From IMG/VR virus record IMGVR_UViG_3300034061_006011: a DNA stretch of 64,000 nt; one strand, written 5' to 3'. Under the pieces are notes generated by a model. That model made no database searches. It was not told where the DNA came from and saw only the letters and a list, made by a program, of their open reading frames with translations. Below, piece after piece: positions 35,222 to 53,410 of this stretch (within the stretch, counting starts at the first letter, position 1; the number at the start of each line of letters is the position of its first letter). The translations under genes and the position numbers were made by a program. This DNA is from a virus. Lineage: Duplodnaviria > Caudoviricetes.

Positions 35222-35289
35222 CTCATTCTCCTTATCGAGTACCCGACTTCCCACTGTGTTCCATCAGGTACTCAAATTGTATCAAACTA

Positions 35290-35619
35290 TCAACCACCTG
35301 TCAAGTACAAACCAATTTCACTAACCAAACTCTCCTTAAGCGTTTTATATTCATCATCAATTTTGTCACAAAAGGCATTTTTCAATCTTGCATGTATCTG
35401 ATTTATGTTTTCTAAAATGTTTTTCTTAGCGGAGCTGTCTTCTCTTTGAATAAAGTATTGAAACTTTGTCCAAAGATACTTTAATTCATCAACCATCCTC
35501 CTGTAATCCTTTAGACTAAGATAAACTGAAGCCACTTCAGGCATCTTTAGTCTTTTACCATTCGGCAACACCAACCAACTACCATCTTGGTCATCTACAA
35601 TTTCAATTTCACAATCCAT
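35290..35619 (-). CDS. early hypothetical protein
   Basis: perfect TTGACA-N17-TATAAT upstream. Confidence 0.65.
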   Translation of the reverse strand: MDCEIEIVDDQDGSWLVLPNGKRLKMPEVASVYLSLKDYRRMVDELKYLWTKFQYFIQREDSSAKKNILENINQIHARLKNAFCDKIDDEYKTLKESLVSEIGLYLTGG

Positions 35620-35808
35620 TTTGTCGGTTCCTTTAATGTTATGACTCTCTGTTGGTCATAACACCATTATACCACACATTTTGTCTCTTGTCAAGCCCCT
35701 CATGTGCGTGTACACGATATGTGCGTGCGGTATATGTGCGCCCGGTATATGCTAAACCACCGATAACAAAAAAACCCACCAAGTTTACCTTGGTGGGTCT
35801 GAGTTTAT

Positions 35809-36054
35809 TCAACTTACACGACATAAACGATACACAAATGGCTTGGTTCGACCCCTTTTGTCCTTGTATAAGTCCCTTTTCTTCGTGATCACAAGCGTTT
35901 CTTCGCCTACGTCGATCTCTTGAGCATGTTTTCCACGCCCATAAGGGATTAGAATAGAGAAAATGTCGTCATTACCATTGATTTCATCGGTTATGACTTG
36001 TCGATTAACGCATTGGATGATATGGAACACCCGATTAGCGAATTCATTCATCAC
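35809..36054 (-). CDS. early hypothetical protein
   Basis: ATGA-coupled to upstream ORF. Confidence 0.55.
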   Translation of the reverse strand: MMNEFANRVFHIIQCVNRQVITDEINGNDDIFSILIPYGRGKHAQEIDVGEETLVITKKRDLYKDKRGRTKPFVYRLCRVS

Positions 36055-36248
36055 TTTTCTCCCTTATCTGTGAATTTTGTGTTCTCACAAGGGATGCAAT
36101 TGTGAATTGTACCATCTTCCATAACGAAATCTTGCACTTCTACAAGATCCTTCACATACGTTCTAACAGACGCACGGAACGTCTGCTTGTCTTTGTATAG
36201 TCCAAACCCTTTTCGGACAACAAAAGTAAACAGCTTCATCGTTTCCAT
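36051..36248 (-). CDS. early hypothetical protein
   Basis: start moved to 36248 after GGAGG. Confidence 0.6.
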   Translation of the reverse strand: METMKLFTFVVRKGFGLYKDKQTFRASVRTYVKDLVEVQDFVMEDGTIHNCIPCENTKFTDKGEK

Positions 36249-36674
36249 CTTCAATTCCTCCATTGCAGGTGCGATTTGCTCCTGTTTACACATTGTAACA
36301 AAAATATTTTGTTATGTCAAGAAAAATTTTCAACTAGGCGCATACATATTATTTCATACAACGTGCATATTGCACCTATTAGACACAAAGAGAGTATGAA
36401 TATGTAATAGCGGGCGTTTGACCCGCTTCCTTTCCTATCCTTCACTTGGATAGGTTTTTTTATTTGTATAATGCTTCGCTCCATTATTTTCCACAAATCC
36501 CCATTTCATCCCACCTTATAAAACCTGCCTTACATTATATCTACTTTTCTCAATCCTGATATGTGACTACTTTCCATATCATTTATGTAATTGGTTTGAA
36601 ATAGTTTTAATTATTCCATAAAAAAACCCCTTGGGGATTAGCCAAGGGGTTGATATGGATAGTGTTGATATGTG

Positions 36675-37004
36675 TTATTCTTCTTTAAATGGTAATTCTT
36701 TGTGGTGCCGAATACGAAGGAGTTTAGATTCTGAATCGGTTAAAGAGTTATTGCAGACTACTCTAACTTCATTAAGTTGGAGTTTTTCCATCAACTCCTT
36801 TAATTGGATCTCTTCCGTTATTGGTTGTACCATTGCAAATGGTACATAGGGAAGATCATCTACTTCTCCTATCTGTGTCCCATTTGGTGTTTCATACTCC
36901 ACCTGATCACCTGCAACGAACTCCTGAGACACGAACTTGTTGTCTTCAAATCTTTGGATAACAAAACCGTGCGTAATCTTATAAACCATCTCTTGATACT
37001 CCAT
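36675..37004 (-). CDS. early hypothetical protein with C-terminal DUF932-derived fragment
   Basis: ends VVCNNSLTDSESKLLRIRHHK, matching 39569-40549. Confidence 0.7.
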   Translation of the reverse strand: MEYQEMVYKITHGFVIQRFEDNKFVSQEFVAGDQVEYETPNGTQIGEVDDLPYVPFAMVQPITEEIQLKELMEKLQLNEVRVVCNNSLTDSESKLLRIRHHKELPFKEE

Positions 37005-37167
37005 TTTGTTTTAGGTGAGTGACGACATGTCTTTCACCTACGACAATTGTAGCAGATATTTGGCTTGGTGTCAAGTAATTTTTTGTTTATGTTTTGTTTG
37101 TATTTACATAAAAAAAACCCCTTGGGGATTAGCCAAGGGGTTGATATGGATAGTGTTGATATGGTGG

Positions 37168-37782
37168 TTATGAGTATTGTGGACGATAGTTGCCGGTATG
37201 TGATTCGCCGGGGAATCGTTCATTTGTGATACCATATTCTGTTGGACCATCTGGTTCCGGCAGATAGTCAGCATCTAATCCTCTTGCTTCTAACCAGTCA
37301 AGAGATTCCGATAGGTGTTTATCGTGTTGTCGTTTGCTTGCTTCATTCAGTTCTTCTGCAAAATCCTGCATTTCCTGTCTAATCTGATCGGCTTGTTCGC
37401 CATTTAGACATTCATAAGACTCTTGAAGGAAGCTTTGATGATACCACCAACCACCTTCTTCTGCTCCTCCGTAGGACTGGTAGTGTTCATATAAAGATAT
37501 GAACTTTGATGGTTGTTGAATTCTGTTTTGTGAATCACATTCGCATGTGTTCTTCTTGCCTTCGCATCGTTCACCACCGCCTTCATATTTAATACAAATT
37601 CCATCTTCATTAAGCTCAGGAGATTCGCATTCACATGTTTGCCAGTAAATTTCCTTATTACAATTTTGGCAAACATGTGGTGGTCGTTTGATTTCTTCTT
37701 CTCTGTTTTCTTCACCGAATACTTTCTTCAGATTATACTTAGCGATGATTTTGCTGAATGATTCTGCTTTATACTTAGGCAT
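37168..37782 (-). CDS. acidic Cys-containing early protein
   Basis: CxxC/CxC clusters; start after GGAGTATCAAG. Confidence 0.7.
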   Translation of the reverse strand: MPKYKAESFSKIIAKYNLKKVFGEENREEEIKRPPHVCQNCNKEIYWQTCECESPELNEDGICIKYEGGGERCEGKKNTCECDSQNRIQQPSKFISLYEHYQSYGGAEEGGWWYHQSFLQESYECLNGEQADQIRQEMQDFAEELNEASKRQHDKHLSESLDWLEARGLDADYLPEPDGPTEYGITNERFPGESHTGNYRPQYS

Positions 37783-37943
37783 CTTGATACTCCATTGGTT
37801 TGAAAGCAAGCCATTTGCTTTCGTGGATGTATTGTATCAGGTATTTGGTTTAGTGTCAATGTTTTTTTTTGGTATTATGTTTGCATAAAAAAACCCCCTT
37901 GGGTGTTATCCAAGGGGGTTGATATGGTTGGTGTTGATATGTG

Positions 37944-38645
37944 TTATTCTTGTTCTTGTTTAAGTTGTTGTGAGTTATATTGTGCCCAGAGGAGTGGGCA
38001 ATTGGTTTTAATCCAATTTTGTACTCTTGCGATTTCATCAAGACGATTGTGCCAATGTGATTTCATATAATCATTATCTTGATCGAAGGTATGTCTTCCT
38101 CTGGCATATCTTTCTGCACGTTGTTCTCCTGAGTCATGGTTCTCCATTTCGGAGTATGCATTATTGATCTGATCTTCGAGGTACTTGATGAAGTTTAGAT
38201 TAACTTCAATCTCTCCGCACTTCCTTAGAAGTCTGAGTGTGGCATCTTCGAGCAACTTCCTTTCCTTTTCATTCTTAAGAAGAACGAAGTCAACCATTTG
38301 CATTAGTACAGCACGTCCGTCAATTTCGTGGTCGTTAGCCTCATCGAACTTTTCCTTCAGACTTTCAAAGTCTGTAATTTCTTGAAGATAAGCAATAATC
38401 TCAGGGACTTCGTTGCTGTTGTGGAAACGGAGTCCTCGGCTGAGACTTTTGATGACATCTTCGATGTTTGCTTCTTTTGTAATTGTTCTACAAGAGAAGT
38501 TCCCACTTTCTGGATCACCGTAATCATAATCTTCTACGATGAAGATTTGATGTTGAAATTTATCCTTAATCCTTTGAATTTCCTTGTTGATTGTCTCTTG
38601 ATGGATATTGCGCTCTTCGATAGTCATTTCAGGCATATTAGGCAT
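37944..38645 (-). CDS. early hypothetical protein
   Basis: 233-aa ORF in a full cassette. Confidence 0.7.
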   Translation of the reverse strand: MPNMPEMTIEERNIHQETINKEIQRIKDKFQHQIFIVEDYDYGDPESGNFSCRTITKEANIEDVIKSLSRGLRFHNSNEVPEIIAYLQEITDFESLKEKFDEANDHEIDGRAVLMQMVDFVLLKNEKERKLLEDATLRLLRKCGEIEVNLNFIKYLEDQINNAYSEMENHDSGEQRAERYARGRHTFDQDNDYMKSHWHNRLDEIARVQNWIKTNCPLLWAQYNSQQLKQEQE

Positions 38646-38818
38646 CTTGATACTCCTTTGGGTTACGAGAGCAAGCTGTTTGCTTTCGTGAGTGCATTGT
38701 AACAGGTATTTGGTTTGGTGTCAATGTTTTTTTTTGTTTTTTTTGGTGTTTGTATTTGCATAAAAAAACCCCCTTGGGTGTTATCCAAGGGGGTTGATAT
38801 GGTTGGTGTTGATATGTG

Positions 38819-39046
38819 TTATTCTTGTTTGAATAGGTCTTTGAAATGATCTTTGAATTTATCAAAGTCTTCCTGAGAGAGACTTGATTCCCAATATTGT
38901 CTATTGGGATTTTCCATTGTTTCTTCTACTTCTTCGACAAAATTTATGTCTTTTAGAAGTTTGCTTATAGCAAAGTTTTCTTTATCGAGATCAGTGATTT
39001 TGTTTTCATTCATGTATTGAATGAATTCTTCTTTCGTCCATTCCAT
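38819..39046 (-). CDS. early acidic hypothetical protein
   Basis: cassette, start moved to 39046. Confidence 0.65.
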   Translation of the reverse strand: MEWTKEEFIQYMNENKITDLDKENFAISKLLKDINFVEEVEETMENPNRQYWESSLSQEDFDKFKDHFKDLFKQE

Positions 39047-39119
39047 CTTGATACTCCATTGGTATGAAAGCAATCCATTTGCTTTCGTGGATGTATTGTA
39101 TCAGGTATTTGGTTTAGTG

Positions 39120-39299
39120 TCAATGTTTGTTTTTCATTTCGTTAAACTTTTGGTTTATAGAATTAGTTAGTTCTCTTTTGATTGCCATAATTTCCGTATG
39201 TGTTGCATTCTTAAGATGCTCTTTGAGCATGATAAGCAGCTTGTCGATGTGGCTTTGTATTTGGATAAGTTTAATATCCTGTTCAAGTGAATAAGGCAT
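39120..39299 (-). CDS. 59-aa helical protein, not in ORF track
   Basis: AGGAGG RBS; stop codon lies in the next -35 box. Confidence 0.6.
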   Translation of the reverse strand: MPYSLEQDIKLIQIQSHIDKLLIMLKEHLKNATHTEIMAIKRELTNSINQKFNEMKNKH

Positions 39300-39568
39300 G
39301 GGCGATCCTCCTGATATGAAAGAGTTGATTAGAAAAGTTTCTGTTCATACTTTCCATTCTATATTCTAACCTATTTTCTCTTGTTGTGTCAATACCTCTT
39401 ATTTTGGCTTATAGCTCATTTATTTCTTTCCTTGGGACTTCGGGTGATTATTAGAAGATAATCGTTTCTAGGTGGCGTTATGTAAAACTGTGAATGGGTT
39501 TATGTGATTGCATAAAAAAAACCCACACTGGTTTTTGCCAGTGTGGGCTTATGGTTTATTAAATTCGA

Positions 39569-40549
39569 TTAGTTAGCGACTTGGACGGCTAGGTCTAACG
39601 CCCGTTTGTTCATATTAGCTGATTGACCGAACCAGAGGGAGGTGTATCGGTTATCAGGGTTTCGTCCGGCGTTGTGAGAGAGGTGTTCGGTGACTGCGTT
39701 GTAAGCAGACCACCAAGTACCTTCAGCGAGGTCAGATCCTACGCCGACATAGGCGAGGTCGGTGATTTCTTTGACACGGTTGAAGGAGCGGGTTGACATT
39801 TCGCCATCGGTATTGACATCAACGTCAAGGACTTTGATGACATATTCGACGAGATCCTTGTGGTTAACGATTCTGCTTTTGGCGAGGAATCGGTATTGTT
39901 CCATGGTGGCTTGGAACTCAGAGTTTGCGAGAACCATAATTTCTCGAACTTTGTCGAGAACTTCGGTTTGTCGTTTGTGGTGCCGAATACGGAGGAGTTT
40001 AGATTCCGAATCGGATTTAGCTTGAGCTAATGTATTAGCACAAACTACACGGACTGGGGTGAAACCTGCACGGGTGGATTGAGTCCCGTCGAATGAAGTG
40101 GAAAGAAGGATATAGCGTTTAATCGCATCACCTTTAACGACTTCGGATTCTTCTTCATTAACTTTGCACATAGCAAAGATAACCCTACCTCCTTTGAGGA
40201 CACCGGCGGTTTCAAAAGTAGCTAGACCTGAGTCAACAACAGGTTGAAACCATTGAAGAGCTTCACTTGGTTGAATTGGTTCCCATTGTGGACCAACTGT
40301 GCCGAGGTAAGCTTGATCGACATCACGGAGAACGCCGAATGAATCTTCGGTTGGTGTAAATTCTCCGTTTTCGTCTTTGCGGTAGAGAGGGGATTTGTAA
40401 ACTCCCCAATCCATGTTTGCGGCTTTGAGGAAGGACAGATAATTCTTAGTATCATCTCCTTCTACTTTCTGACCGAGTGAGTGCCAACCGGGTTGACCGG
40501 CGAAGGCGAAAGAAGCGACATTATTCCTGTTTTCGATATCGTGTGCCAC
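39569..40549 (-). CDS. DUF932-family phage/plasmid protein
   Basis: MAHDIE...GQPGWHSLG, FETAGVLKGGR, LLSTSFDGT, TPVRVVCANTL, GTWWSAYNAVTE; GTG start at 40549. Confidence 0.85.
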   Translation of the reverse strand: MAHDIENRNNVASFAFAGQPGWHSLGQKVEGDDTKNYLSFLKAANMDWGVYKSPLYRKDENGEFTPTEDSFGVLRDVDQAYLGTVGPQWEPIQPSEALQWFQPVVDSGLATFETAGVLKGGRVIFAMCKVNEEESEVVKGDAIKRYILLSTSFDGTQSTRAGFTPVRVVCANTLAQAKSDSESKLLRIRHHKRQTEVLDKVREIMVLANSEFQATMEQYRFLAKSRIVNHKDLVEYVIKVLDVDVNTDGEMSTRSFNRVKEITDLAYVGVGSDLAEGTWWSAYNAVTEHLSHNAGRNPDNRYTSLWFGQSANMNKRALDLAVQVAN

Positions 40550-40671
40550 TGTCTGAATCTCCTTATAACTGTCGTTTCTGGGCGAAGTTGCCGTTGACGA
40601 CAGGTGTATTGTAGCGTGTTTCGGTCGTGGTGTCAAGTGTTTTTTTTTATTTTTTTGGGGTTTGTGGTTGT

Positions 40672-40914
40672 TTAATTTTTTGGGAATTTTGGGGTAATTT
40701 CTGGTGAAACGTGGATATCGTCCTTATCGTTGATGATATAGAACGATGCTGATATGGTCATTTTGTCTATGAAACCTTCTTCTTTTGTATAAACATTAAC
40801 ACGGAATCTGTTATCGAATATATTGATTACATTTACATGGGAGAAGTTTGGTGGAGTTCCCAGTTGATCTAATACAAAGTCAGCGATTTCATTATTTTCT
40901 TCCTTGACCTTCAT
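40672..40914 (-). CDS. early hypothetical protein
   Basis: INIFDNRFRVNVY; cassette. Confidence 0.65.
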   Translation of the reverse strand: MKVKEENNEIADFVLDQLGTPPNFSHVNVINIFDNRFRVNVYTKEEGFIDKMTISASFYIINDKDDIHVSPEITPKFPKN

Positions 40915-41003
40915 GCTAATCTCCTTTTGATATGGCGAAGTTGCCATGGTGTAATTGTATCTTGTTAGGTGTTAATTGTCAATAGATAAAATCTGAAATA
41001 AAA

Positions 41004-41336
41004 TTATTTTAGATTTGGGAAAATTCCATATTTTCTATCGCTGTGGATGGTAGCGGTGCCGTCATTTATAGCTTTCTGCATAATTTCTAGGCATTTATCT
41101 TTATCAAATTGTGGGTAATGGTGATATGGGTCAACTAGAATAGATTCTAGTGTAGTTTTCATTTCTATAAGTTCTTCGTAGCGGATATAGTCATCTTGGG
41201 ACTGGAAAGCTTCCATGAGAGCAATTCTTCTGATTGCTAGGGTATTTTCATGGAATGTGAAGTCAGTGTATCCCCAACCGTTTTTAGGAATCCAAGTTCT
41301 TAGACCTGTGGGGATGCTTTTATACTTTGTGGTCAT
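41004..41336 (-). CDS. early hypothetical protein
   Basis: cassette, start moved to 41336. Confidence 0.65.
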   Translation of the reverse strand: MTTKYKSIPTGLRTWIPKNGWGYTDFTFHENTLAIRRIALMEAFQSQDDYIRYEELIEMKTTLESILVDPYHHYPQFDKDKCLEIMQKAINDGTATIHSDRKYGIFPNLK

Positions 41337-41449
41337 TCTATAACTCCTTTTATATGGCGAAGTTGCCATGTGTTTATTGTATCGTGTTTATTTTTGTTTG
41401 TCAATAGGAAAAAAAACCCCAGTGATTTTGGTCACTGGGGTTTTGGGTT

Positions 41450-41596
41450 TTATTGTTCTTTTATAATTTTGGCGAGTTTAGCTGATCTGGTATTTTGTCG
41501 TTTTGTTTTTTTGTTATTATGGATACCTGCACCTGAGAGGTGTGGTTTATGTCCTGTTGATATGTTGAGGGTATCAATTTTACCTATGATCTTCAT
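41450..41596 (-). CDS. 48-aa basic protein (GHKPHLSGAGIH...KRQNTR), not in ORF track
   Basis: AAGGAG RBS; ends just before a terminator. Confidence 0.6.
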   Translation of the reverse strand: MKIIGKIDTLNISTGHKPHLSGAGIHNNKKTKRQNTRSAKLAKIIKEQ

Positions 41597-41922
41597 ATAA
41601 CTCCTTTCAATTTATATTCTTCTAGTGTTAGAAGACTTTGTTCATCCCAATTTTTTGGGAAGTTATCTTCTACTTTATTTACGAATTCTTGATGATTTTC
41701 GTCATTATCATCATATACTAGGCGTACAGAGTAATAGTAACCGAAATCATGTGGGTTACTTTTGATTGTGTAATATACGCCTTCTGGTTTTGGGAATTGT
41801 CTTTCTAGTTGTTTAATTAGAGTTTTTGCTTCTAATTTTGCCATAATTGAGTCATAGTTTGGTCCTAATTGTTGGCAATTTTCTTCATATGGGGTTGTTT
41901 CAAATTCGTAATAGTCAGACAT
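41593..41922 (-). CDS. acidic phage protein
   Basis: TPYEENCQQLG...NPHDFGYYYSV. Confidence 0.7.
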   Translation of the reverse strand: MSDYYEFETTPYEENCQQLGPNYDSIMAKLEAKTLIKQLERQFPKPEGVYYTIKSNPHDFGYYYSVRLVYDDNDENHQEFVNKVEDNFPKNWDEQSLLTLEEYKLKGVI

Positions 41923-42001
41923 TGTGATACTCCTAATTGGTTATCAGCAATCCGTTTGCTGATAAGGGTATTGTAGCGCAGATTAGAGAGTTTGTCAATG
42001 T

Positions 42002-42226
42002 TTAATTCATTTTATTTACGAATCTTTTCCATCGTTTTCTGTAATTTTTATCAGATTCTGTCTCTTTTGAGACATTTTGCTTGCAGTTTGGGCAAGCTGA
42101 GTAATTGCTTGTTTGGTTTAATGGATTATAGGAGCCGTTGAATGGATTATGGGAGCCGATGAGATTTTCCCGGCAGAGGGAGCATTCTTGATAGATCGTT
42201 TGATAAATACTAAGTCTTAATTGCAT
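42002..42226 (-). CDS. Zn-ribbon protein; paralog of 43450-43662
   Basis: CSLC...CPNC, shared C-terminus. Confidence 0.65.
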   Translation of the reverse strand: MQLRLSIYQTIYQECSLCRENLIGSHNPFNGSYNPLNQTSNYSACPNCKQNVSKETESDKNYRKRWKRFVNKMN

Positions 42227-42282
42227 TGTGTGATACTCCTAATTGTGGAAATGGAAAAGGGGGAGGGCGTGTCTCTTCAGGT

Positions 42283-42597
42283 CTAATCAACAATTGGTTG
42301 CTGATCGATAATCCTGTGAATCTCTGTGGAATCATATGAACATATCCTAGATATGAAACCTTGCAGTTCTACCAAAGAATATATCTTTGGTTCTTCTTCT
42401 TTAGTTGATAATTCATTCCATGTGTGTACTCGGAATTGATAACAATCACCATCATTGGCAATTCTTTCTATCTTCTCGATAGAATAATTTTGACTGTCCC
42501 CAATATCAGCATTGGGGTTGTTTTCAATATTCTGCTTGAGAATATCCAGTTTGCTTTCCAACAAAGCAATTGCCAACTTGTGTGCAAAGTTATACAT
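42283..42597 (-). CDS. early hypothetical protein
   Basis: cassette with promoter and hairpin. Confidence 0.65.
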   Translation of the reverse strand: MYNFAHKLAIALLESKLDILKQNIENNPNADIGDSQNYSIEKIERIANDGDCYQFRVHTWNELSTKEEEPKIYSLVELQGFISRICSYDSTEIHRIIDQQPIVD

Positions 42598-42785
42598 CTC
42601 ACATACTCCTTCTTATCGGCAGCCATTGCTGACAATGTATCATAGGTAGTTGAACGTAGATAAGTCAACTTTTGTGTTTACCTAATTTTGTTTATTTCTT
42701 TAATAATTTCTTGGATAAGAAGGGGGGGAGAATGTGTCTTGAAGCACTCTCCCCCCCCTATTAGCACCTTGTTGGTGCTAATATA

Positions 42786-43139: not shown

Positions 43140-43240
43140 TTTAAGAATTCCTAACGTGAGTGATATTGGTCACTCGTCCATATCCCGGCGGGGCACACCG
43201 CTTGGGGAGAGTTTTAACCTGTGCCGGTGGTTTGGGTGGC

Positions 43241-43390
43241 TTAGACTGCGTTAAGCATCATCTTTGCCATTGTGGACAATTTGTGTTTGGCTTGGACTAA
43301 GGAATTCTCTAAGAATTCCTTATTGTTTTGCAAGTCTTTAATATCCGTTTTCAGTTTATGTTCTTCCTTTTTGAGTTGTATAATTAGCTT
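43241..43390 (-). pseudogene. 3' fragment of the 44232-44558 gene fused to a promoter copy
   Basis: last 44 aa nearly identical to 44232 ORF; no RBS or true start. Confidence 0.75.
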
Positions 43391-43449
43391 GAAAGCAATC
43401 CGTTTACTGATAAGGGTATTGTAGCGCAGATTAGAGAGTTTGTCAATGT

Positions 43450-43662: not shown

Positions 43663-43762
43663 TTGTGTACTCCTAATTGTGTAAATGCAAAAAAAGGGGG
43701 AGAGTGTGTCTTGAAGCACTCTCCCCCTATTAGCACCAACGAGGTGCTAATATATCGTTGTA

Positions 43763-45025: not shown

Positions 45026-45079
45026 CTTATTCTCCTTAGTGCTTGCCAGCAGTTGTTGCTGGCAAGCGTGTTATAGGGA

Positions 45080-45286
45080 TTAGTTCCTTAGAAGCGGGAA
45101 TGAAATGCCTCGGATTACGAGTTTTCCGTCTTTTCTTCGGACAACTTTGGTTTGATTGTCCACTCGGAAAATTTCTGTTGCTTCGCCCAAGCGAGCGATA
45201 GCTGCTGGGAGTTGGGAATCTAATACTTTCTCCCACTCACCGGTTTGTGGGTTTACTGCGATGATTGGCTGATTGGGATTGTCCAC
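45080..45286 (-). CDS. early hypothetical protein
   Basis: cassette. Confidence 0.6.
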   Translation of the reverse strand: MDNPNQPIIAVNPQTGEWEKVLDSQLPAAIARLGEATEIFRVDNQTKVVRRKDGKLVIRGISFPLLRN

Positions 45287-45413
45287 TTTTCTCTCCTTGT
45301 GTTTATCAGCAACAGTTGCTGATAAGTGTATTGTAACAGGGGTTAGGGGTTATTGTCAATAGTAAAAACCTAATACTCATGTTTTTTGTGCATAGGTATT
45401 AGGAAAGTATAAA

Positions 45414-45605
45414 TTATACTTGGTCAAGTCCTGCCGAGGAGCTTAATCGTTCCCTTAATTCAATAACCTCATTTTCGTGAATCGAACTATCCTCAAACAC
45501 ATACTCATCATCCTCACCATACAAATAATCATCAACATTAGAACTCAAGACGCTTAAGGCGAATTGAATAATCCTGTACTCTTTATCACTCAGAGTAATA
45601 TTCAT
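45414..45605 (-). CDS. small acidic protein
   Basis: start moved to 45605. Confidence 0.6.
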   Translation of the reverse strand: MNITLSDKEYRIIQFALSVLSSNVDDYLYGEDDEYVFEDSSIHENEVIELRERLSSSAGLDQV

Positions 45606-45685
45606 GACACACTCCTTAGTGCTTGCCAGCAGTTGTTGCTGGCAAGCGTATTGTAACATATCGACGTTGATATGTCAAGTTTTGG

Positions 45686-45994
45686 TTAATCAGGTGTTAT
45701 TACACTTCCGATATCTGTTCGCACCTTTTCTTTTCTTCCATTTATTATAATAGTTTTATGTGGCATATTGTCACTGTCACAAGGTACGTTTTGATATAGA
45801 CCTTTCTTAGCAAGGCTACCTAATATTCCTGCGAATGAATTAGGTGTAATGTTATGTTGTTTACATTCCTTTAATGTTTCTGGCAGACCAGTTTGACCAT
45901 CAGACCCGTCAGGCTCGATACCAGAAGCGAAGATATTGGCAACAAGTGCCTTGTAGACGATCTCTTCTAACACTGTCAATTGTACATCTGCCAT
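45686..45994 (-). CDS. possible winged-helix protein
   Basis: FAGILGSLAKKGLY helix-wing pattern. Confidence 0.55.
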   Translation of the reverse strand: MADVQLTVLEEIVYKALVANIFASGIEPDGSDGQTGLPETLKECKQHNITPNSFAGILGSLAKKGLYQNVPCDSDNMPHKTIIINGRKEKVRTDIGSVITPD

Positions 45995-46134
45995 GTCTGA
46001 TTCTCCTTATTGTTTATCAGCAACTGTTGCTGATAAGTGTATTGTAACAGGGGTTAGGGGTTATTGTCAATAGTAAAAGCCTAATACCCATGTTTTTTGT
46101 GCATGGGTATTAGGAAAGTATAAATGGATATGTT

Positions 46135-46446
46135 TTAGACTGGTATAAGATATGTGAACACTTCGATGTGTGCCTGATTTTTTTCTATTGCTTCTTCTAC
46201 TATTTGCAGTGCTTTTTGTTCATCGAACGATGGGAATTTAGTATTATCCATTCGGATTTTTTTATTTTTCACGTTAGTAATGGTGATATGTTGTCCGATT
46301 ATTTTGTGATATTTTTCATTCATGATTATTCTTTCTGACTCTCTGTGGCAGATGAGTTTTTCGGAAGCATCATGATGAAAATAGTGGTAATTCCATCCAT
46401 CTTTAATGATGCAGCAAGTGGTTGACGTTGGTGAAATAGTAACCAT
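46135..46446 (-). CDS. early hypothetical protein
   Basis: cassette. Confidence 0.6.
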   Translation of the reverse strand: MVTISPTSTTCCIIKDGWNYHYFHHDASEKLICHRESERIIMNEKYHKIIGQHITITNVKNKKIRMDNTKFPSFDEQKALQIVEEAIEKNQAHIEVFTYLIPV

Positions 46447-46529
46447 GTCTGATTCTCCTTATTGTTTATCAGCAATCCATTTGCTGACGGATGTATTGTA
46501 ACAGGGGTTAGGGGTTATTGTCAAGGGGA

Positions 46530-46760
46530 TTACTGAATGCTATGTTTGTTATTCATTCTTATCTCCTTGATTATCTCTTGGAGAATAGGAATAAGTGCCA
46601 TATTCCTGCATAGCACTTGATTGTCTTCATCAAGTGCAGATTGTTTTTCAATTATTTCTTCTAAAAGTTTAATATCTTCCTTTCCTCCTAATACGGAAAG
46701 TGTAAGTACACTTTGAAGAATTTGCTGAATAGCAAATGTTGTTGATCTCATTAAGTTCAT
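46530..46760 (-). CDS. early helical protein
   Basis: start moved to 46760. Confidence 0.6.
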   Translation of the reverse strand: MNLMRSTTFAIQQILQSVLTLSVLGGKEDIKLLEEIIEKQSALDEDNQVLCRNMALIPILQEIIKEIRMNNKHSIQ

Positions 46761-46896
46761 TTCATTACTCTCCTTGTTGTTTGTCAGCAAGCCATTTGCT
46801 GACGAATGTATTGTATCATATCGCTGTTGATATGTCAAGTGATAAAAACCTAATACCCATGTTTTTTAGGCATGGGTATTAGGAAAGTATAATACT

Positions 46897-47331
46897 TCAG
46901 GCATCGCTGTCATAGTGTCCATTATCATCGGGATAAACATAATAATCAAAATCTGGTAATTCTCTCTCCTTTATTCTCTTTTCATAATGGTCAAATATTT
47001 TTTGTCCTATTTCATTGGGGACCGGAATTTCATAATCGTCCTTAAACCTAATTACTACATTCTTGAGATACCTTTCGTCGTCACTGCATTCGGGGTTGCA
47101 GTCTTCTGGTTCTCCATAGATCCGTGCAGGTTCATAATATCCACTGCACATATATTCTATTGTTAAATCAAACTCTAAATTACCAACTAATGGTTTTAGA
47201 TATTTATTTAACCAAATTGGTAAAAGTTCTCGTTCTATTTCTACAATATCTCCTCCGTGTGGGTCTGATCCACATTGTAATACCAGAAAATCTGGTATTT
47301 TATTCCAACTGACAGTTCTGGATCTGTTCAT
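46897..47331 (-). CDS. acidic phage protein
   Basis: SGYYEPARIYGEPEDCNPE motif. Confidence 0.65.
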   Translation of the reverse strand: MNRSRTVSWNKIPDFLVLQCGSDPHGGDIVEIERELLPIWLNKYLKPLVGNLEFDLTIEYMCSGYYEPARIYGEPEDCNPECSDDERYLKNVVIRFKDDYEIPVPNEIGQKIFDHYEKRIKERELPDFDYYVYPDDNGHYDSDA

Positions 47332-47332
47332 T

Positions 47333-47851
47333 TCACACACTCCTTTTGATTTTGGCACCAGTCAAGTTGGCACCAGTCAAGTCAATGTCACTGTTGACAC
47401 CAGTTAAGTCCAAGTTTGCATTAGTCAAATTTGCACCATTTAAGTTAGTAAACCTAAAGTAGGCACCAGTCAATTCGGCACCTCTTAGGTTGCAATTTGA
47501 CAAGTCGGCTTTACCTAAAACAGTGTCACTCAAGTCTGCATTAGTCAAATTTGCACCATTTAAATTAGCAAAACTCAAGTTTGCATTAGTCAAATTGGCA
47601 CTTCTTAGGTTGCAATTTGACAAGTTGGCACCAGTTAAGTTGGCACCAACCAAATCAGCATAACTCAAATTAGCGTTACTCAAATCAGCATCAAACAAAT
47701 TGGCACCAGTCAATTTGGTAAAACTCAAGTTAGCATTACGCAAATCAGCAAACTTCAAATTTTCATATGTCAGGTCAGACCTGTCTAAACTTTCATAATG
47801 TGTCTGGTTGACGTAGATGACATCACCATTAATGTTCTTAATCTCGATCAT
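47333..47851 (-). CDS. pentapeptide-repeat protein
   Basis: about 25 A(D/N)Lxx repeats. Confidence 0.93.
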   Translation of the reverse strand: MIEIKNINGDVIYVNQTHYESLDRSDLTYENLKFADLRNANLSFTKLTGANLFDADLSNANLSYADLVGANLTGANLSNCNLRSANLTNANLSFANLNGANLTNADLSDTVLGKADLSNCNLRGAELTGAYFRFTNLNGANLTNANLDLTGVNSDIDLTGANLTGAKIKRSV

Positions 47852-47966
47852 TTCACACTCTCCTTTGGGTAAAACATGAAAAAAAGTATCTGGATTAGGG
47901 GAAGAAACCTAATACCCATGTTTTTTATGCATGGGTATTAGGAATTCCTAAATGGATATGTGGATA

Positions 47967-48254
47967 TTAATCCCAACCATGGTCGTCACTTTCTTTAAGC
48001 TTGCGCTTACAAACGGCACAAATGTAGTCATCGTCCTCATATGGGGGATGAACAACATCACCACCCCAACCATCGATTCCAAGCGGATCGCCGTTATAAG
48101 GTTTAAGTTCTTCGTCATAGAAGTGAGGATCGGACTTCAAATGTTTGTAACAGCGCATACAGACATCATATGTGCTGCTTCCACTCCCATATTTGTTATC
48201 AGGACTTTCGCACCATTCATGGACATTTGAACCTGAATTATCAACGCGAGGCAT
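47967..48254 (-). CDS. acidic 2xCxxC protein, copy 1 of 3
   Basis: CMRC...CAVC; start moved to 48254. Confidence 0.75.
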   Translation of the reverse strand: MPRVDNSGSNVHEWCESPDNKYGSGSSTYDVCMRCYKHLKSDPHFYDEELKPYNGDPLGIDGWGGDVVHPPYEDDDYICAVCKRKLKESDDHGWD

Positions 48255-48312
48255 AAACTTACTCCTTTGTGTTTGCCAACAAACCATTTGCTGACTCATG
48301 TATTGTAGGGGG

Positions 48313-48642
48313 TTAGGGGTTATTGCCAAAAATATTGTAACCTAATACCCATGTTTTTTGTGCATGGTTGTCACTTCTTGTAAGCTTGCGCTTACAAACG
48401 GCACAAGTGTAGTCATGGTCCTCATATGCAGGATGATGCTCATCACCACCCCAACCATCGATTCCAAGCGGATCACCGTTATAAGGTTTAAGTTCTTCGT
48501 CATAGAAGTGAGGATCGGACTTCAAATGTTTGTAACACATCCTACAGACATCATTTGTGCTGGGTCCACTCCCATGTGGGTTATCATCAGGACTTTTGTA
48601 CCATTCATCCACATTTGAACCCATATTATAAATGCGAGGCAT
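48313..48642 (-). CDS. copy 2 of 3, C-terminus extended by loss of its stop codon
   Basis: deletion at CATGG microhomology fuses gene end to half-terminator. Confidence 0.7.
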   Translation of the reverse strand: MPRIYNMGSNVDEWYKSPDDNPHGSGPSTNDVCRMCYKHLKSDPHFYDEELKPYNGDPLGIDGWGGDEHHPAYEDHDYTCAVCKRKLTRSDNHAQKTWVLGYNIFGNNP

Positions 48643-48784
48643 AAACTTACTCCTTTGTGTTTGCCAACAAACCATTTGCTGACTCATGTATTGTAGGGGG
48701 TTAGGGGTTATTGTCAAGAGGGAAACCTAATACCCATGTTTTTTGTGCATGGGTATTAGGAATTCCTAAATGGATATGTGGATA

Positions 48785-49075
48785 TTACTCCCAACCATGA
48801 TTGTCACTTCTTGTAAGCTTGCGCTTACAAACGGCACAAGTGAAGTCATCGTCCTCATATGCAGGATGATGCTCATCACCACCCCAACCATCGATTCCAA
48901 GCGGATCGCCGTTGTAAGGTTTAAGTTCTTCGTCATAGAAGTGAGGATCGGACTTCAAATGTTTGTAACAGCGCATACAGACATCATATGTGCTGGGTCC
49001 ACTCCCATGTGGGTTATCATCAGGACTTTCGTACCATTCATCGACATTTGAACCTAAATTATAAATGCAAGGCAT
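48785..49075 (-). CDS. copy 3 of 3
   Basis: near-identical to copies 1 and 2. Confidence 0.75.
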   Translation of the reverse strand: MPCIYNLGSNVDEWYESPDDNPHGSGPSTYDVCMRCYKHLKSDPHFYDEELKPYNGDPLGIDGWGGDEHHPAYEDDDFTCAVCKRKLTRSDNHGWE

Positions 49076-49079
49076 ATCA

Positions 49080-49262
49080 TTACTCCTTTATTGTGTGCAA
49101 AATTGGGTATAATGTAATTTCATCTTCTGTTGCTACGGGAGTTTCACCAGCAGCATTTACCAACCAGTACGCACCGGGACCATTTTCTGGTTGCCATTCA
49201 ATTACCCAATGTGGTACTGCTGATCCCCAAAAAACCATGTCACCATGCTCATAACGTCTCAT
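49080..49262 (-). CDS. small beta-rich (SH3-like) protein
   Basis: cassette; YEHGDMVFW...WVIEW. Confidence 0.55.
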   Translation of the reverse strand: MRRYEHGDMVFWGSAVPHWVIEWQPENGPGAYWLVNAAGETPVATEDEITLYPILHTIKE

Positions 49263-49417
49263 ATCAAATACTCCTTAATAATAAAGCTTTAGTGCCCAAT
49301 CGATTGCCAGCAAACCATTTGCTGACAAATGTATTATAGGGGGTTAGGGGTCGTGGTGTCAAGTGATAAAAACCTAATAATCATGTTTTTTGTGCATGGG
49401 TATTAGGAAATCCTAAA

Positions 49418-50050
49418 TCACACTTGTTGTTGTGTAAGTCTTTCGATCATAATGTCGGTAATTTCTTTTACTAATATTTTTACAAATTCTTTTGATCTCA
49501 TTATATCTTCTGCAACAGCAAAAGTTGGTATTTCTGCTGCAATATCTTTAGAAGACAATCCTGCTACGATATCTTCTATAGAGATCTCTGCTGCGATATC
49601 AGCAAAAGATAATCCTTCTACAATGTCTTCTGTAGAGAATTCTGCTGCAATATCAGAAACACAGAATTTATCTGCGATATCTGAAGCAGAGAATTGTCCT
49701 GCTATTTTTTCTACCATATCATCATTTTCGCTGATATCAGATGCAAGTTCAGCTAAAAAATCTGAGTTAGATAATTTTTCTGCAATTTTTTCAGCGATAT
49801 CATCTTCGCTGAAATTAGATGCAATTTCCGATGTGTCAATATGATTTGCCAACTTTTTAATATTAACATATGGAGCGACATCAGCCGCAGAGAATTTTTC
49901 TGCTATTTTTTCTGCTATTACCTCTTCTGAAATGACAATTTGATTAGCTAAATTATTGATATTCAATGCTTCTGCCAATTTGGCATAATCAATTTCTGGT
50001 GTTGTTACTGTTACATAAGAAGCAATTTTCTTAAAAATCCAATTAAACAT
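49418..50050 (-). CDS. acidic protein with 9-aa helical repeats
   Basis: IAAEFSTED/IVEGLSFAD/IAAEISIED/IVAGLSSKD. Confidence 0.7.
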   Translation of the reverse strand: MFNWIFKKIASYVTVTTPEIDYAKLAEALNINNLANQIVISEEVIAEKIAEKFSAADVAPYVNIKKLANHIDTSEIASNFSEDDIAEKIAEKLSNSDFLAELASDISENDDMVEKIAGQFSASDIADKFCVSDIAAEFSTEDIVEGLSFADIAAEISIEDIVAGLSSKDIAAEIPTFAVAEDIMRSKEFVKILVKEITDIMIERLTQQQV

Positions 50051-50128
50051 TATAATTCTCCTTAATCTGTCGCTGTTGGCGAAGTTGCTTAGGCGACAGG
50101 TGTATTATAAATTGATCTGATCGCTGTG

Positions 50129-50359
50129 TCAATCAATTTCTTTGCACAATTCCAAGATTTTCACTTCTTCAGGGAGTAGATCCCATGTTGTTTCGATATA
50201 ACCGTCTTCGGTTTTCTTGTTAAAAGTAACACGATAAGGTCTTGCCTTACCATCTACTCCGATATGATTGGGTCTTACAGTTGCCCAAGCATCTACTGGA
50301 ATTGGATTACCATTCATGAAATTAACAACTGTAAATCTAACAGCAATTCTATTATTCAT
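50129..50359 (-). CDS. early hypothetical protein
   Basis: cassette. Confidence 0.6.
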   Translation of the reverse strand: MNNRIAVRFTVVNFMNGNPIPVDAWATVRPNHIGVDGKARPYRVTFNKKTEDGYIETTWDLLPEEVKILELCKEID

Positions 50360-50491
50360 AACATTCTCCTTAATGTTCGGCGAAGTTGCCGAGAGTGCAT
50401 TGTAACAGGTATTGGTTGGTATGTCAATAGAAAAACCCTGCCAAATCGGCAGGGTTTATGGTTTGCTAATTATACTTTAGCAAGAATGGAA

Positions 50492-50680
50492 TTATTTTTT
50501 CTTTGGAAATAATTCCTCAAAATCATCTTTACTTATTTTATACTCATCTGACATATCATCATATGTGATGTCTACGCCTAGTAACTTGAAAAAATCAACG
50601 GGAAAATCTGGATCTTCCATGTTGTTTTTCACTAACTTATTGATAAGTCTTTCCATGTCTGACGCATTGATATTCTTCAT
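50492..50680 (-). CDS. small acidic protein
   Basis: coupled to upstream ORF. Confidence 0.55.
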   Translation of the reverse strand: MKNINASDMERLINKLVKNNMEDPDFPVDFFKLLGVDITYDDMSDEYKISKDDFEELFPKKK

Positions 50681-51003
50681 TATACTTCCTCCTCTACAGA
50701 TTCTTGGTTAAAGACAGTACCATTCTCTTGAACATATCCTTCAGCCAATTCTTGCCAATTAACTTCCGACAGGGTAGCGTTGATAAGGTCATTGAGGAAA
50801 CAATTGGTTATATCTTTACCATTTTCATCTTTGATCATGTTTTCTTCGACAAAATTTTTGATATCTTTTGCCAATTCGTACTGATTCCTTGCATTATTAG
50901 CAAGATTTTGTACTTCACGTTCATAATGTTGTTCATTATCAATATGAAGAGAGACAAGCCAAGTCTCGTAGTTGTAATGACCGTTATATTCCTTATTGTT
51001 CAT
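50680..51003 (-). CDS. phage protein with YNGHYNYETWLVSLHIDN motif
   Basis: conserved-looking N-terminus and VNWQELAE. Confidence 0.7.
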   Translation of the reverse strand: MNNKEYNGHYNYETWLVSLHIDNEQHYEREVQNLANNARNQYELAKDIKNFVEENMIKDENGKDITNCFLNDLINATLSEVNWQELAEGYVQENGTVFNQESVEEEV

Positions 51004-51030
51004 TTCAATTCTCCTTATTGTGATTGAAGA

Positions 51031-51264
51031 TCAAGAAAATTGCCTTGCCAGTACAGGTTTTTTGCTGGAAGGCATAAAAAGACGTTTTTTGTGTCCATTG
51101 CCTACGTTAATGGCACGATAGTACATTACTGCGGAAATGAATTTGCCTTTAAATTTACTTATTGTTTTGTAACTACTTTTTCCATGTCCAATTTGGATAA
51201 GGAATTCTGTTTCGTTAGTATATGCGATGTTTTTACCATCAATTTCCGAGATATACGTTTCCAT
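51031..51264 (-). CDS. early hypothetical protein
   Basis: cassette. Confidence 0.65.
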   Translation of the reverse strand: METYISEIDGKNIAYTNETEFLIQIGHGKSSYKTISKFKGKFISAVMYYRAINVGNGHKKRLFMPSSKKPVLARQFS

Positions 51265-51370
51265 GTCATTCTCCTTAATGTTCGGCGAAGTTGCCGAGAG
51301 TGTATTGTAACGGGTATTGGTTTTTGTGTCAATAGGAAACCCTAATTTTTTAGGGTTTATGGTTTGTCAA

Positions 51371-51649
51371 TTATTCTTCGACTGGTGCGAAGAATTGTGC
51401 TAGTTGTTTTTCTAATGCCCTAACATCACCATTTTCTCCGAATGTCTTTCGGATTAGGTATGTTCGGCAGTCGTGAAATCGTTTTCTTTCCTTAGTGGAT
51501 ACACCTTGTCCGCTTATGGTGTATTGATCGAATGATTCTTGTAGAGATTGCATTTCTACTACAAGTTCTTCGTGTGTCATCTCTTCTGGTCTATATGGGA
51601 CCAGCGAGTAGAAGAAATTTGGAATTGTATCTGGTTGTAATCGTACCAT
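51371..51649 (-). CDS. hypothetical protein
   Basis: 92-aa ORF in operon. Confidence 0.55.
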   Translation of the reverse strand: MVRLQPDTIPNFFYSLVPYRPEEMTHEELVVEMQSLQESFDQYTISGQGVSTKERKRFHDCRTYLIRKTFGENGDVRALEKQLAQFFAPVEE

Positions 51650-51805
51650 TAGTAGCTCCCTACTTCTGTTAAATTACCTTTAGCCAGAGCAATGGCTGTT
51701 TTACAAAGTAGTTCTAATTGGTCTGTATCAAAGTAATTATTTGTGTCTGGATTTACAATGAGCCTATTCATTTCTTCTAGTATTTGAATAAGAGTCTTGT
51801 TCACT

Positions 51806-52003
51806 TCACGATCTAACATGTCCATATTTAGACTCCTGACATTCTGAGCATTTGAAACGATCTTTGTACGCCGAAATGATAACTTTACCTGAGATATCTC
51901 TGATATCTTCTTGTGGTTGATTTTCCCAATCTTTAAAATCTACGATATTAGTTCTTATGCATTTGCAAGCGTATTTTACTCTTATAATTCTCATGTCATT
52001 CAT
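51806..52003 (-). CDS. small Cys-containing protein
   Basis: CKC...CSEC. Confidence 0.5.
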   Translation of the reverse strand: MNDMRIIRVKYACKCIRTNIVDFKDWENQPQEDIRDISGKVIISAYKDRFKCSECQESKYGHVRS

Positions 52004-52184
52004 TTTCCATCTCCTTTCCTTGGATAGACCAGTTGCCTATTTTGTTTCCATTAGCATCGAGTATGCCGTTGGACAGGGAGTTGTTTACTTGGCTAGCGAT
52101 TTTTCGTAAAATCCTAGCTGTTTCCTGTTGTGGATCATCTGTGAAGGCATCGTTGTCCATATCAAAAGTACAAGTAAAACGCAT
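51996..52184 (-). CDS. small phage protein
   Basis: FDMDNDAF...ARILRKIA...ILDANGNKIG. Confidence 0.7.
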   Translation of the reverse strand: MRFTCTFDMDNDAFTDDPQQETARILRKIASQVNNSLSNGILDANGNKIGNWSIQGKEMENE

Positions 52185-52233
52185 TCCATTGCTCCTTGTG
52201 GTTAAGTTACTGTAACATATCGTTGTTGATATG

Positions 52234-52482
52234 TCAAGTTTCTTCTATTTCACCGATACAATCGTCTGAGAAGAAGTCAATTTTTTCTAAGTTTTTGTAA
52301 TCATATTCTGGAATTATAACAACCATATCGACGCTGACGACATCTTTATATGGTCCGCTTAGTGGTTTATTGTTATGGTCAATAAATTGATCATTAACAA
52401 TAAATTTATGTTCGATTAGTTGTTTTACAACATAGTTAAATGATTCTCTCTTGTTGTAATGAATCATACCTTTGTATGCCAT
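52234..52482 (-). CDS. hypothetical protein
   Basis: start moved to 52482. Confidence 0.5.
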   Translation of the reverse strand: MAYKGMIHYNKRESFNYVVKQLIEHKFIVNDQFIDHNNKPLSGPYKDVVSVDMVVIIPEYDYKNLEKIDFFSDDCIGEIEET

Positions 52483-52486
52483 TTTG

Positions 52487-52723
52487 TTAATCCCTATAAG
52501 CGTTGATGATGTAATATGACCTTGTTTGATCTTTCTTAGGGAAAGAAGAAGCAGAAATAGTTTGACTAAATGAACCGCCAAAGATAGCGGAATGGGAATA
52601 ATCTACTAATTTACTTTGAAGTTCGTTTGGAATATCTTTATCTGTTGATACAAGGTCTTGAGTTGTATCGTTATTAGAATTAAGTCTTTCTTCAAATCGT
52701 GGGTCGAAATCTTTGATATCCAT
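52487..52723 (-). CDS. early hypothetical protein
   Basis: cassette. Confidence 0.55.
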   Translation of the reverse strand: MDIKDFDPRFEERLNSNNDTTQDLVSTDKDIPNELQSKLVDYSHSAIFGGSFSQTISASSFPKKDQTRSYYIINAYRD

Positions 52724-52869
52724 TGTTATACTCCATTGGTTAGGTGGTATACATTACCGCCATGGGTTTATTGTATATGGTTTTTGGTTCTATGTCAAGG
52801 TTTTTTTGTTGATGTGTAAAATTCCCCTATGTTTTGGCATAGGGGAATTATGTTTTTGCAAGAATGTTT

Positions 52870-53040
52870 TTATATTTTTGCTTGAAATTGTTGGAATGTT
52901 AAGTGAGTTAATCCGCTTCCTAGTATTCCGAGTATTAGTGCTAGGAAGATGCTATTAAATTCTGTGTAGACTATAACAGCTAACAGTGTAAAGACTGTTA
53001 GTTTTGTTAATTCTGTTATTATGTTTAAGTTATTTAGCAT
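52870..53040 (-). CDS. small two-helix membrane protein
   Basis: two hydrophobic segments. Confidence 0.5.
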   Translation of the reverse strand: MLNNLNIITELTKLTVFTLLAVIVYTEFNSIFLALILGILGSGLTHLTFQQFQAKI

Positions 53041-53287
53041 TTTGTTTGCTCTTGTATACTGAATAAGACTGATCAACGAGTTGGTTAAGTTTTTTTGAAT
53101 CTAATTTTTTGTTAGGTCTCATTAGTGGTGGTAATTTCTTACCAGTTTTATCTGATATGCTTTTCTTCTTATTCATAATGCTTGCATATGTCAATTTCAA
53201 TCTTTTTGACAGTTGCAATATAGTCAATCTTTTATCGATTGCTTGGATATAGGCTTTAATAAACTTCACGTCATCGATCATCGTCAA
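53030..53287 (-). CDS. basic small protein, possible HTH
   Basis: LTILQLSKRLKLTYASIMNKK. Confidence 0.6.
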   Translation of the reverse strand: MTMIDDVKFIKAYIQAIDKRLTILQLSKRLKLTYASIMNKKKSISDKTGKKLPPLMRPNKKLDSKKLNQLVDQSYSVYKSKQNAK

Positions 53288-53410
53288 ACTCCTTTTTTAT
53301 TACAGCTAAGTGCTGTACAAGGATTATATGCGATTTTTATGTTTATGTCAAGGTTTTTTGTATTGTGTTAATATATATGTCAACATAATAATTCACTTTT
53401 AAGGAGCATT

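Follow-up and report, generated by a model that had tools for sequence, protein, structure and literature searches.

Virus record IMGVR_UViG_3300034061_006011 (Duplodnaviria; Caudoviricetes) was analysed over a stretch of 64,000 nucleotides (nt), hereafter the window, in which an 18-kb region of the minus strand, 53351 to 35276, contains 26 near-consensus sigma-70 promoters. A first-pass annotation had proposed that nearly every early transcript of this region starts with a hairpin, and a hairpin was indeed found to begin 3-9 nt past the -10 box at 25 of the 26. Each promoter-hairpin unit comprises an optional terminator, the sigma-70 promoter, the hairpin, a strong Shine-Dalgarno sequence (SD) and a start codon. 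The gene for a DUF932 protein (39569-40636) is among those led by a hairpin, ParB is encoded nearby at 32984-34120, and the window further contains genes for a pentapeptide-repeat protein and for a large terminase (6606-8372) whose match is the T4-type large terminase. Twenty hairpin-led proteins compared with Pfam showed no significant family and are classed as ORFans. No tRNA genes were found in the window, and a near-identity search of the 18-kb region against deposited phages and plasmids gave no close DNA relative; the region is present in 20 lake-water metagenome runs.

Architecture of the promoter-hairpin cassettes

Promoters were identified by scanning for TTGACA-N16-18-TAnAAT and counted at 11-12 matches out of 12; many have an extended TG as well. 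At offset 7 after the -10 box a purine occurs in 23 of the 26, flanked by mostly pyrimidines at offsets 4-6 and 8, a context and spacing usual for a sigma-70 start, and this position is our predicted +1. With the purine so placed, the predicted +1 usually coincides with the first paired base of the stem. The structures are located at the predicted transcript start, as the first-pass annotation had it, with a first stem base no later than offset 7 in most cassettes and 1-2 nt further on (offset 8-9) in the others, and 0-2 nt would remain unpaired at the predicted 5' end. The last base of the hairpin is at offset 22-39 and the SD at +27 to +57, never within the first hairpin, and the gap between the two varies from 4 to 27 nt; because the hairpin keeps its place relative to the -10 box while this gap varies, its anchor is the promoter rather than the ribosome-binding site (RBS). 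The 36 nt past the -10 box fold with a mean minimum free energy (MFE) of -9.0 kcal/mol, compared with -3.8 kcal/mol (standard deviation 3.5) at 2000 random positions on the same strand and in the same region.

The hairpins fall into several classes, described here for minus-strand cassettes numbered 1 to 26 from 53351 downwards, each extending from the first base of its promoter to the last base of its hairpin (coordinates of promoter and hairpin are given in that order). Class A combines a variable outer stem with an inner GCAA/UUGC and a 5-nt loop. It occurs in cassettes 6 (49362-49333, 49328-49304, with one U.G pair), 7 (48717-48690, 48683-48663, with two G.U pairs), 8 (46838-46810, 46803-46783, loop AUGGC), 9 (46524-46495, 46488-46468, loop AUGGA and a terminal G.U), 13 (44638-44610, 44603-44579, with one internal A.C mismatch), 15 (41998-41970, 41965-41941, a 10-bp stem with loop ACGGA), 20 (39123-39095, 39086-39066, loop AUGGA), 21 (38724-38696, 38689-38665, loop ACAGC and one A.C mismatch) and 22 (37859-37831, 37822-37802, loop AUGGC). 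The hairpin of cassette 7 recurs at 48295-48275 behind a weaker promoter (TTGGCA, 48329-48302). Class A' is the class A stem with a 3-nt loop, found in cassettes 10 (46070-46041, 46036-46014, 10 bp, loop CAG) and 12 (45359-45330, 45325-45303, loop CUG). Across the window and its relatives, the class-A loops read AUGGA, AUGGC, AUGGU, ACGGA, ACAGC, AUAGA, AUGUC and AAGGC, in addition to the 3-nt loops CAG and CUG. An A-Y-N-N-N pentaloop, which had been described as frequent at these starts, is a property of class A only and drifts within class A itself.

Class B carries a GGC-AACUUC-GCC apex on four different outer stems and is found in cassettes 3 (51332-51304, 51297-51282), 4 (50427-50399, 50392-50377), 5 (50132-50104, 50099-50067, with a 7-bp outer stem), 16 (41404-41376, 41369-41354), 17 (40982-40954, 40947-40932) and 18, which precedes the DUF932 gene (40636-40608, 40603-40569, again with a 7-bp outer stem). 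In cassette 4 a second 6-bp hairpin, 50378-50355 on the minus strand, directly follows the 5' hairpin and presents the SD AAGGAG as its loop; the sister cassette with promoter 51304 has only a partial version. Class C is a two-tier stem, represented in the region by cassette 23 (37074-37046, 37040-37012). In class C stems (37040-37012 and a second at 31356-31330) AGGUGA, which resembles an SD, pairs with UCACCU, which exactly matches part of the anti-SD tail of 16S rRNA; the pairing could be due to chance or be relevant to ribosome recruitment.

The other hairpins, several of them unique, are those of cassettes 1 (53351-53323, 53317-53301, a single-type 6-bp stem with a pentaloop, UACAGC-ACUUA-GCUGUA), 2 (52798-52770, 52767-52730, imperfect and branched), 11 (45678-45650, 45647-45621, 11 bp with loop ACAAC), 19 (39392-39363 with -10 box TAGAAT, 39354-39318, long, imperfect and the weakest of the set), 24 (36320-36292, 36284-36266, small and interrupted), 25 (35694-35666, 35663-35637, 8-10 bp) and 26 (35304-35276, 35273-35237, a 10-bp stem with a large loop). 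The hairpins listed by the first-pass annotation (cassettes 1, 7, 8, 9, 11, 13, 15, 20 and 22) all have the positions and sequences it gave, and its GGC-AACUUC-GCC class (cassettes 3, 4, 16, 17 and 18) is located as claimed, with outer stems that differ. The class motifs are almost exclusive to the position after a promoter: throughout the window GCAA-N5-TTGC lies within 25 nt past a -10 box in eight of its ten occurrences, and GCAACTTCGC in six of six.

Separate U-tailed terminators precede about eleven of the promoters, including those of cassettes 2 (52849-52820), 4 (50457-50433), 16 (41444-41413), 21 (38795-38767), 22 (37920-37892), 23 (37142-37116) and 25 (35800-35772), and are themselves repeated families; many cassettes also have an intrinsic terminator one gene further on. 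One family (stem CCUAAUACCCAUG...) is found upstream of five promoters with small differences, on the minus strand at approximately 45421-45375, 46110-46075, 46885-46850, 48770-48730 and 49410-49370, and its copy before promoter 45330 is weakened. Repetition with small differences indicates that the terminators, too, are shuffled modules.

Selection on base pairing among relatives and strains

To compare the hairpins across genomes we used six relatives that encode the DUF932 protein with 79-99% identity, namely the viral contig L001 and L002-L006, five contigs from lake metagenomes. Nearly all consensus promoters of these six contigs have a hairpin in the same place, the exception being one small gene in L004 and L005 with an unstructured leader. 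From the window and five related contigs, 31 distinct class-A sequences were aligned. Paired cells make up 79% of this alignment, against 65% in shuffled alignments (none of 500 shuffles reached the observed value) and 22-45% with slid partners, and the covariation score is 0.336 against 0.116. Four stem positions each use three to four pair types with few broken pairs, and the inner four pairs, GCAA/UUGC, do not vary among the 31 sequences. By this alignment, the covarying stems reported by the first-pass annotation are real.

Orthologous genes point in the same direction. The gene whose product begins MNIEKSNE has three different stems in the window, L002 and L005, including two A:U to U:A double changes, and orthologs of the MSDYYEFE gene exhibit an A:U to G:C exchange in the stem. 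In the DUF932 leader, the class B apex is kept on a changed outer stem in L004 and L005, where its loop reads AAAUUC in place of AACUUC, and L001 has an altogether different hairpin. The class-A loop of L004-L006 is AUGUC.

Across about 7 kb the window shares 97.6-97.8% identity with its closest relatives, L002 and L003, and was compared with them position by position. No substitution was found at 236 paired stem positions or at 144 positions of promoter hexamers, while loops and bulges had 3 in 121, promoter spacers 3 in 205, the interval from the -10 box to the hairpin 2 in 52, and everything else, taken as background, 156 in 6488 (2.4%). At the background rate about 5.7 changes would be expected in the stems, and the probability of seeing none is about 0.003. 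Pairing is therefore preserved to the same degree as the promoter hexamers, and there is no conservation of the loops, whose changes include AUGGA to AUAGA in cassette 20. Covariation and strain-level purifying selection on stems together bear out the earlier claim that the compensatory changes signify selected structure; judged from these comparisons, the pairing is under selection and the loop sequence is not.

Cassette exchange and similarity to early stem-loop units of T4-type phages

Promoter-early stem-loop (PeSL) cassettes have been described in the T4-type phages RB49/phi1, T4/PST and KVP40/nt-1 (Arbiol et al. 2010, PMC2839356; Comeau et al. 2014, PMC4122927), with the stem-loop considered a terminator or attenuator upstream of, inside or overlapping the promoter and, in one subclass, just before the start site (PMC2839356, PMC4122927). 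Like these, the window cassettes are repeated units of a near-perfect sigma-70 early promoter, a stem-loop, a strong SD and a start codon, they are concentrated before ORFans in a variable (hyperplastic) region, and indel breakpoints between close relatives fall inside them. The leader start (ACAC..CA.CGAAA) and the RBS (GGAGAATCA..ATG) of many window cassettes also resemble RB49 units (RB49 114-124 kb), which hints at shared ancestry of the cassettes or at a common optimum. Unlike the PeSL stem-loop, the window hairpin has no U tract, lies within the predicted transcript from +1 instead of upstream of, within or overlapping the promoter, and is additional to the separate U-tailed terminators upstream; its pairing, moreover, is under selection independently of sequence. 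The known parts in this arrangement are PeSL-type cassettes and 5' stem-loop stabilisers, and the 5' hairpin is an added fourth cassette module. In the literature searched, we found no account of a T4-like phage whose cassettes systematically include a 5'-terminal hairpin with covarying pairs.

On re-examination, RB49 has a GC stem inside the promoter spacer or a terminator upstream, and the 36 nt past its -10 boxes are unstructured: of the two stretches examined, the one rich in ORFans has a mean MFE of -2.4 and the second -4.9, where the background is about -4. Leaders are likewise unstructured (means -2.3 and -3.4) in two other viral contigs, which have five to nine consensus promoters and came from a looser promoter-hairpin pattern search of viral contigs, whose matches were mostly chance singles. 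A search of viral contigs for the exact DNA pattern of a -10 box followed by a class-A hairpin gave no match, nor did a protein-guided search of viral contigs with two early proteins. The unstructured leaders of RB49 and of the two contigs indicate that the 5' hairpin is specific to the clade studied here and not a by-product of strong promoters.

The gene content of the window differs from that of L001-L005, and recombination inside the cassettes is evident from three observations. A 1448-nt segment of the window is absent from L002 and is flanked by a 149-nt direct repeat, which takes in upstream region and promoter and continues through the hairpin as far as its 3' arm. The only promoter with no hairpin is that of cassette 14 (43374-43446; promoter 43446-43418, identical to that of cassette 15). 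There, the 5' arm and loop of the cassette at 41970 run into unrelated sequence, and neither an SD nor a start codon follows; it is evidently a chimeric recombination scar resulting from exchange between 149-nt repeats. An open reading frame (ORF) of 79 aa, 43480-43241, runs uninterrupted across this promoter, a perfect consensus, and the broken, chimeric hairpin that follows it; stop codons close the homologous frame upstream of its twin, promoter 41998.

A contig from a public run (X26) joins 45031 to 45612, skipping 580 nt with 38 shared letters. The skipped segment is bounded by the hairpin and SD of cassette 11 and by a promoter-less second copy of them, 45067-45041, which lies 580 nt downstream of the first; the join is an exchange between these two copies, the second having lost its promoter. 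Other lake-run variants skip 4236 bases (46116/50353, X27) and 14215 bases (39193/53409, X1), with short flanks. In the window and its relatives, a given gene can follow different promoter spacers, and a given spacer can be combined with different hairpins. We infer that the cassettes, hairpin included, serve as homology for recombination that inserts or deletes ORFan genes. The class A' hairpins 46036-46014 and 45325-45303 are identical except for the loop, CAG against CUG, and the L002 ortholog of the 45330 gene (L002:353-383) has the CAG form. With the loop as the sole difference, each of the two hairpins is the exact reverse complement of the other, and the pair looks like an inversion of the palindrome centre or a product of template switching.

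Proposed function of the 5'-terminal hairpin

With moderate confidence we hold that the paired 5' terminus is a barrier to RppH and to RNase E/G or J. In this uncultured lake phage the early region is made up of portable regulatory cassettes, and the hairpin in each would itself be transcribed. Host RNA polymerase most likely initiates at the purine 7 nt past the -10 box, and each early mRNA would then be born with a base-paired triphosphate 5' end bearing 0-2 free nt, denying RppH and the 5'-end-dependent nucleases (RNase E/G, or RNase J) single-stranded access. The short early messages would thereby be stabilised, possibly while the phage speeds host mRNA decay as T4 does. A requirement of RppH and RNase E for single-stranded 5' ends is the accepted explanation for stabilisation by 5' stem-loops (PMC3997798), and T4 infection is known to destabilise host mRNAs via RNase E/G (PMC3014915). 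If any stable stem suffices, this would explain the covariation of the stems, their swapping between orthologous genes and the drift of the loops. Three functions had been suggested for the hairpins by the first-pass annotation, namely 5'-end protection, a recognition mark and an antitermination signal, and the first fits best: the placement of the hairpin follows the promoter and is independent of the SD, pairing usually starts at the predicted +1, and the loops drift.

The closest precedents are the 5' stem-loop stabilisers of the Escherichia coli ompA and papA leaders (Emory, Bouvet and Belasco 1992, as cited in PMC3997798). As in those leaders, the window hairpins lie within 0-2 nt of the (predicted) 5' end and leave the SD free downstream, and only pairing appears to be required, with no need for a particular sequence: stems covary, differ between orthologs and, among near-identical strains, remain unchanged where loops do not. 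They differ in scale and in kind of evidence, the stabilisers having been demonstrated by experiment in single genes, whereas here the feature extends to 25 of 26 early promoters and five more nearby and is deduced from sequence. The leader of phage T7 gene 10 is another 5'-terminal stem-loop stabiliser. If the hairpins work as proposed, 5'-terminal pairing would not be confined to the occasional single gene (ompA, T7 gene 10) but would extend as a rule to a whole temporal class of messages, with protection built into the same portable cassette as promoter and ribosome site. PeSL-type cassettes, discussed so far as promoters, terminators and recombination sites, would gain a post-transcriptional function. 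The window cassettes are compact, at about 80 bp, and could be parts for expression constructs.

A more elaborate form of this proposal, which we consider unlikely, is that in early infection the phage triggers 5'-end-dependent decay of host mRNA (it might activate RNase E/G, as in the case of T4, or bring in a decapping-type activity) and that its own early messages, with their paired ends, are immune. If true, this would amount to genome-wide discrimination of self from non-self at the RNA 5' end, and the portable cassettes would automatically protect any new gene.

That the hairpins act as RNA is suggested by a second group of promoters outside the 18-kb region. Five sigma-70-like promoters on the minus strand at 29234-32670 (-10 boxes ending at 29270, 29834, 30348, 31363 and 32642), reading TTGACC or TTGACA with TAGAAT, TATGAT or TAAATT, are each directly followed by a G.U-rich hairpin of 11-12 bp. 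Four of these leaders (29834, 30348, 31363 and 32642) were folded on both strands, and in each the transcribed strand is much more stable (-16.4 against -7.9, -18.9 against -11.8, -18.6 against -15.6 and -12.0 against -8.4 kcal/mol), with one to three G.U pairs per hairpin. Hairpins 30348 and 29834 differ by a G.U to G-C change, and hairpins 31363 and 29270 have the outer stem of class C. The far better folding of the transcribed strand at 29.8-32.6 kb points to a general use by this phage of RNA hairpins at transcript starts.

Several observations weigh against an RNA-level protective function. Within the 18-kb region, a wobble test with symmetric scoring gave 16 A.C against 4 G.U oppositions; the A.C oppositions are mostly outer or precede the predicted start and derive from few cassette families, so that they are not independent, and the sense strand is rich in A. 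Of 59 leaders, 41 fold slightly better as the antisense strand, and in the related class-A stems 44610 and 38696 the internal A.C mismatch would be a G.U pair on the opposite strand. About nine palindromes reach 2-4 bp upstream of the predicted +1, for which RNA-level selection alone offers no explanation. The invariance of GCAA/UUGC in class A allows for recognition of a sequence and not merely of any stem. A 10-kb query retrieved no RNA dataset, and two metatranscriptome runs with small shares of the region yielded only a few read-length contigs (151-189 nt), one of them across a promoter, which may represent DNA or read-through.

The second of the three suggested functions would make the hairpins a recognition tag for a phage or host RNA-binding protein. 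Such a protein would mark early messages to be translated preferentially, to be shut off or cleaved at a set time, or to be told apart from host mRNA, and protection would be at most a side effect. We think this rather doubtful. GCAA/UUGC is constant while the outer pairs covary, class B keeps its AACUUC loop (AAAUUC in L004 and L005) on four stems, and UGG-containing apexes recur in L001 and at 32642, all of which a bound protein could account for. Yet at least four unrelated apex types and several unique hairpins occupy the same position, which argues against a common recognition motif; class-A loops vary widely among relatives, and between near-identical strains loops change at the background rate while stems do not. 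None of about 50 window ORFs searched against Pfam and PHROGs matched an RNA-binding, Nudix or RNase-related protein, and every early gene is an ORFan.

A role at the DNA level is a further candidate, in which the palindromes, centred at about +11, are operators for a dimeric early repressor, or recombination or cruciform sites, and the RNA hairpin is incidental. The lac operator O1 has the same geometry, its centre lying at about +11. The upstream reach of the palindromes and the lack of a strand bias toward the transcript in the wobble test within the region both agree with such a role, as do the breakpoints inside hairpins (the 1448-nt segment, whose 149-nt repeats end in the 3' arm, and the 580-nt skip) and the exact inversion of the CAG and CUG loops. 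Against this, half-site recognition by a protein predicts neither mirror-image compensation nor unrelated palindromes at the same position, recombination homology would preserve loops too, whereas only stems are constrained, and the four sibling leaders (29.8-32.6 kb) have several G.U pairs, and in the other arm of a cruciform these would become A.C mismatches. Taken together, these considerations make a DNA-level role improbable.

An effect on transcription itself, through a nascent-RNA element of the nut/boxB or put type acting in antitermination, or through help in escaping from very strong promoters, is very improbable. Like lambda nut boxB and HK022 put, the window hairpins are small and promoter-proximal in phage early transcripts, the class-A stem and pentaloop are of boxB-like size, and many cassettes have an intrinsic terminator one gene later. 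The window, however, has 26 monocistronic units in place of one or two long operons, and with a promoter for each gene read-through is not needed. The sequence classes, which share no sequence, are too different for a single RNA that binds RNA polymerase; none has a GNRA-like pentaloop, and no boxA was noticed. A search of Rfam at a permissive threshold returned only sub-threshold, terminator-like chance hits, none reaching a gathering score. The antitermination signal of the first-pass annotation is not supported as one of the nut or put type.

The CsrA/RsmA likeness that had been noted, by which host CsrA would bind one GGA in the loop (its consensus being GGA in a hairpin loop) and another in the SD and so control early translation, is extremely improbable and, as a general explanation, largely refuted: four or five of the class-A loops read A(U/C)GGA with an AAGGAG or AUGGAG SD 10-20 nt downstream, resembling a two-site CsrA geometry, but these are 4-5 of 26, the other loops (GGC, GGU, CAG, CUG, ACAAC, AACUUC and others, class B and the single hairpins included) have no GGA, and the GGA is not conserved between cassettes, strains (AUAGA for AUGGA in L002 and L003) or relatives (AUGUC in L004-L006), the loops evolving at the background rate.

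Three further candidates were set aside on structural grounds. The hairpins are not intrinsic terminators, as no U tract follows on the sense strand and the opposite strand has only a weak T-richness that stems from the -10 box; they are not RNase III sites, their stems of 5-12 bp being too short; and they are not hairpin promoters of the N4 type, since they lie downstream of a perfect sigma-70 promoter and not upstream of the start.

Beyond the 18-kb region, two further consensus promoters on the minus strand have no hairpin (55607-55579 and 57347-57319, within a feature span of 55552-57347). There, the SD begins 8-11 nt past the -10 box and the leader is about 14 nt long, which places the ribosome site itself at the 5' end. 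Behind this region of hairpin-less consensus promoters lie two small sigma-like genes on the minus strand (55003-56384), one with a region 4 match and one with a weak region 2 match. They are candidates for switching transcription away from host sigma-70 after the early phase.

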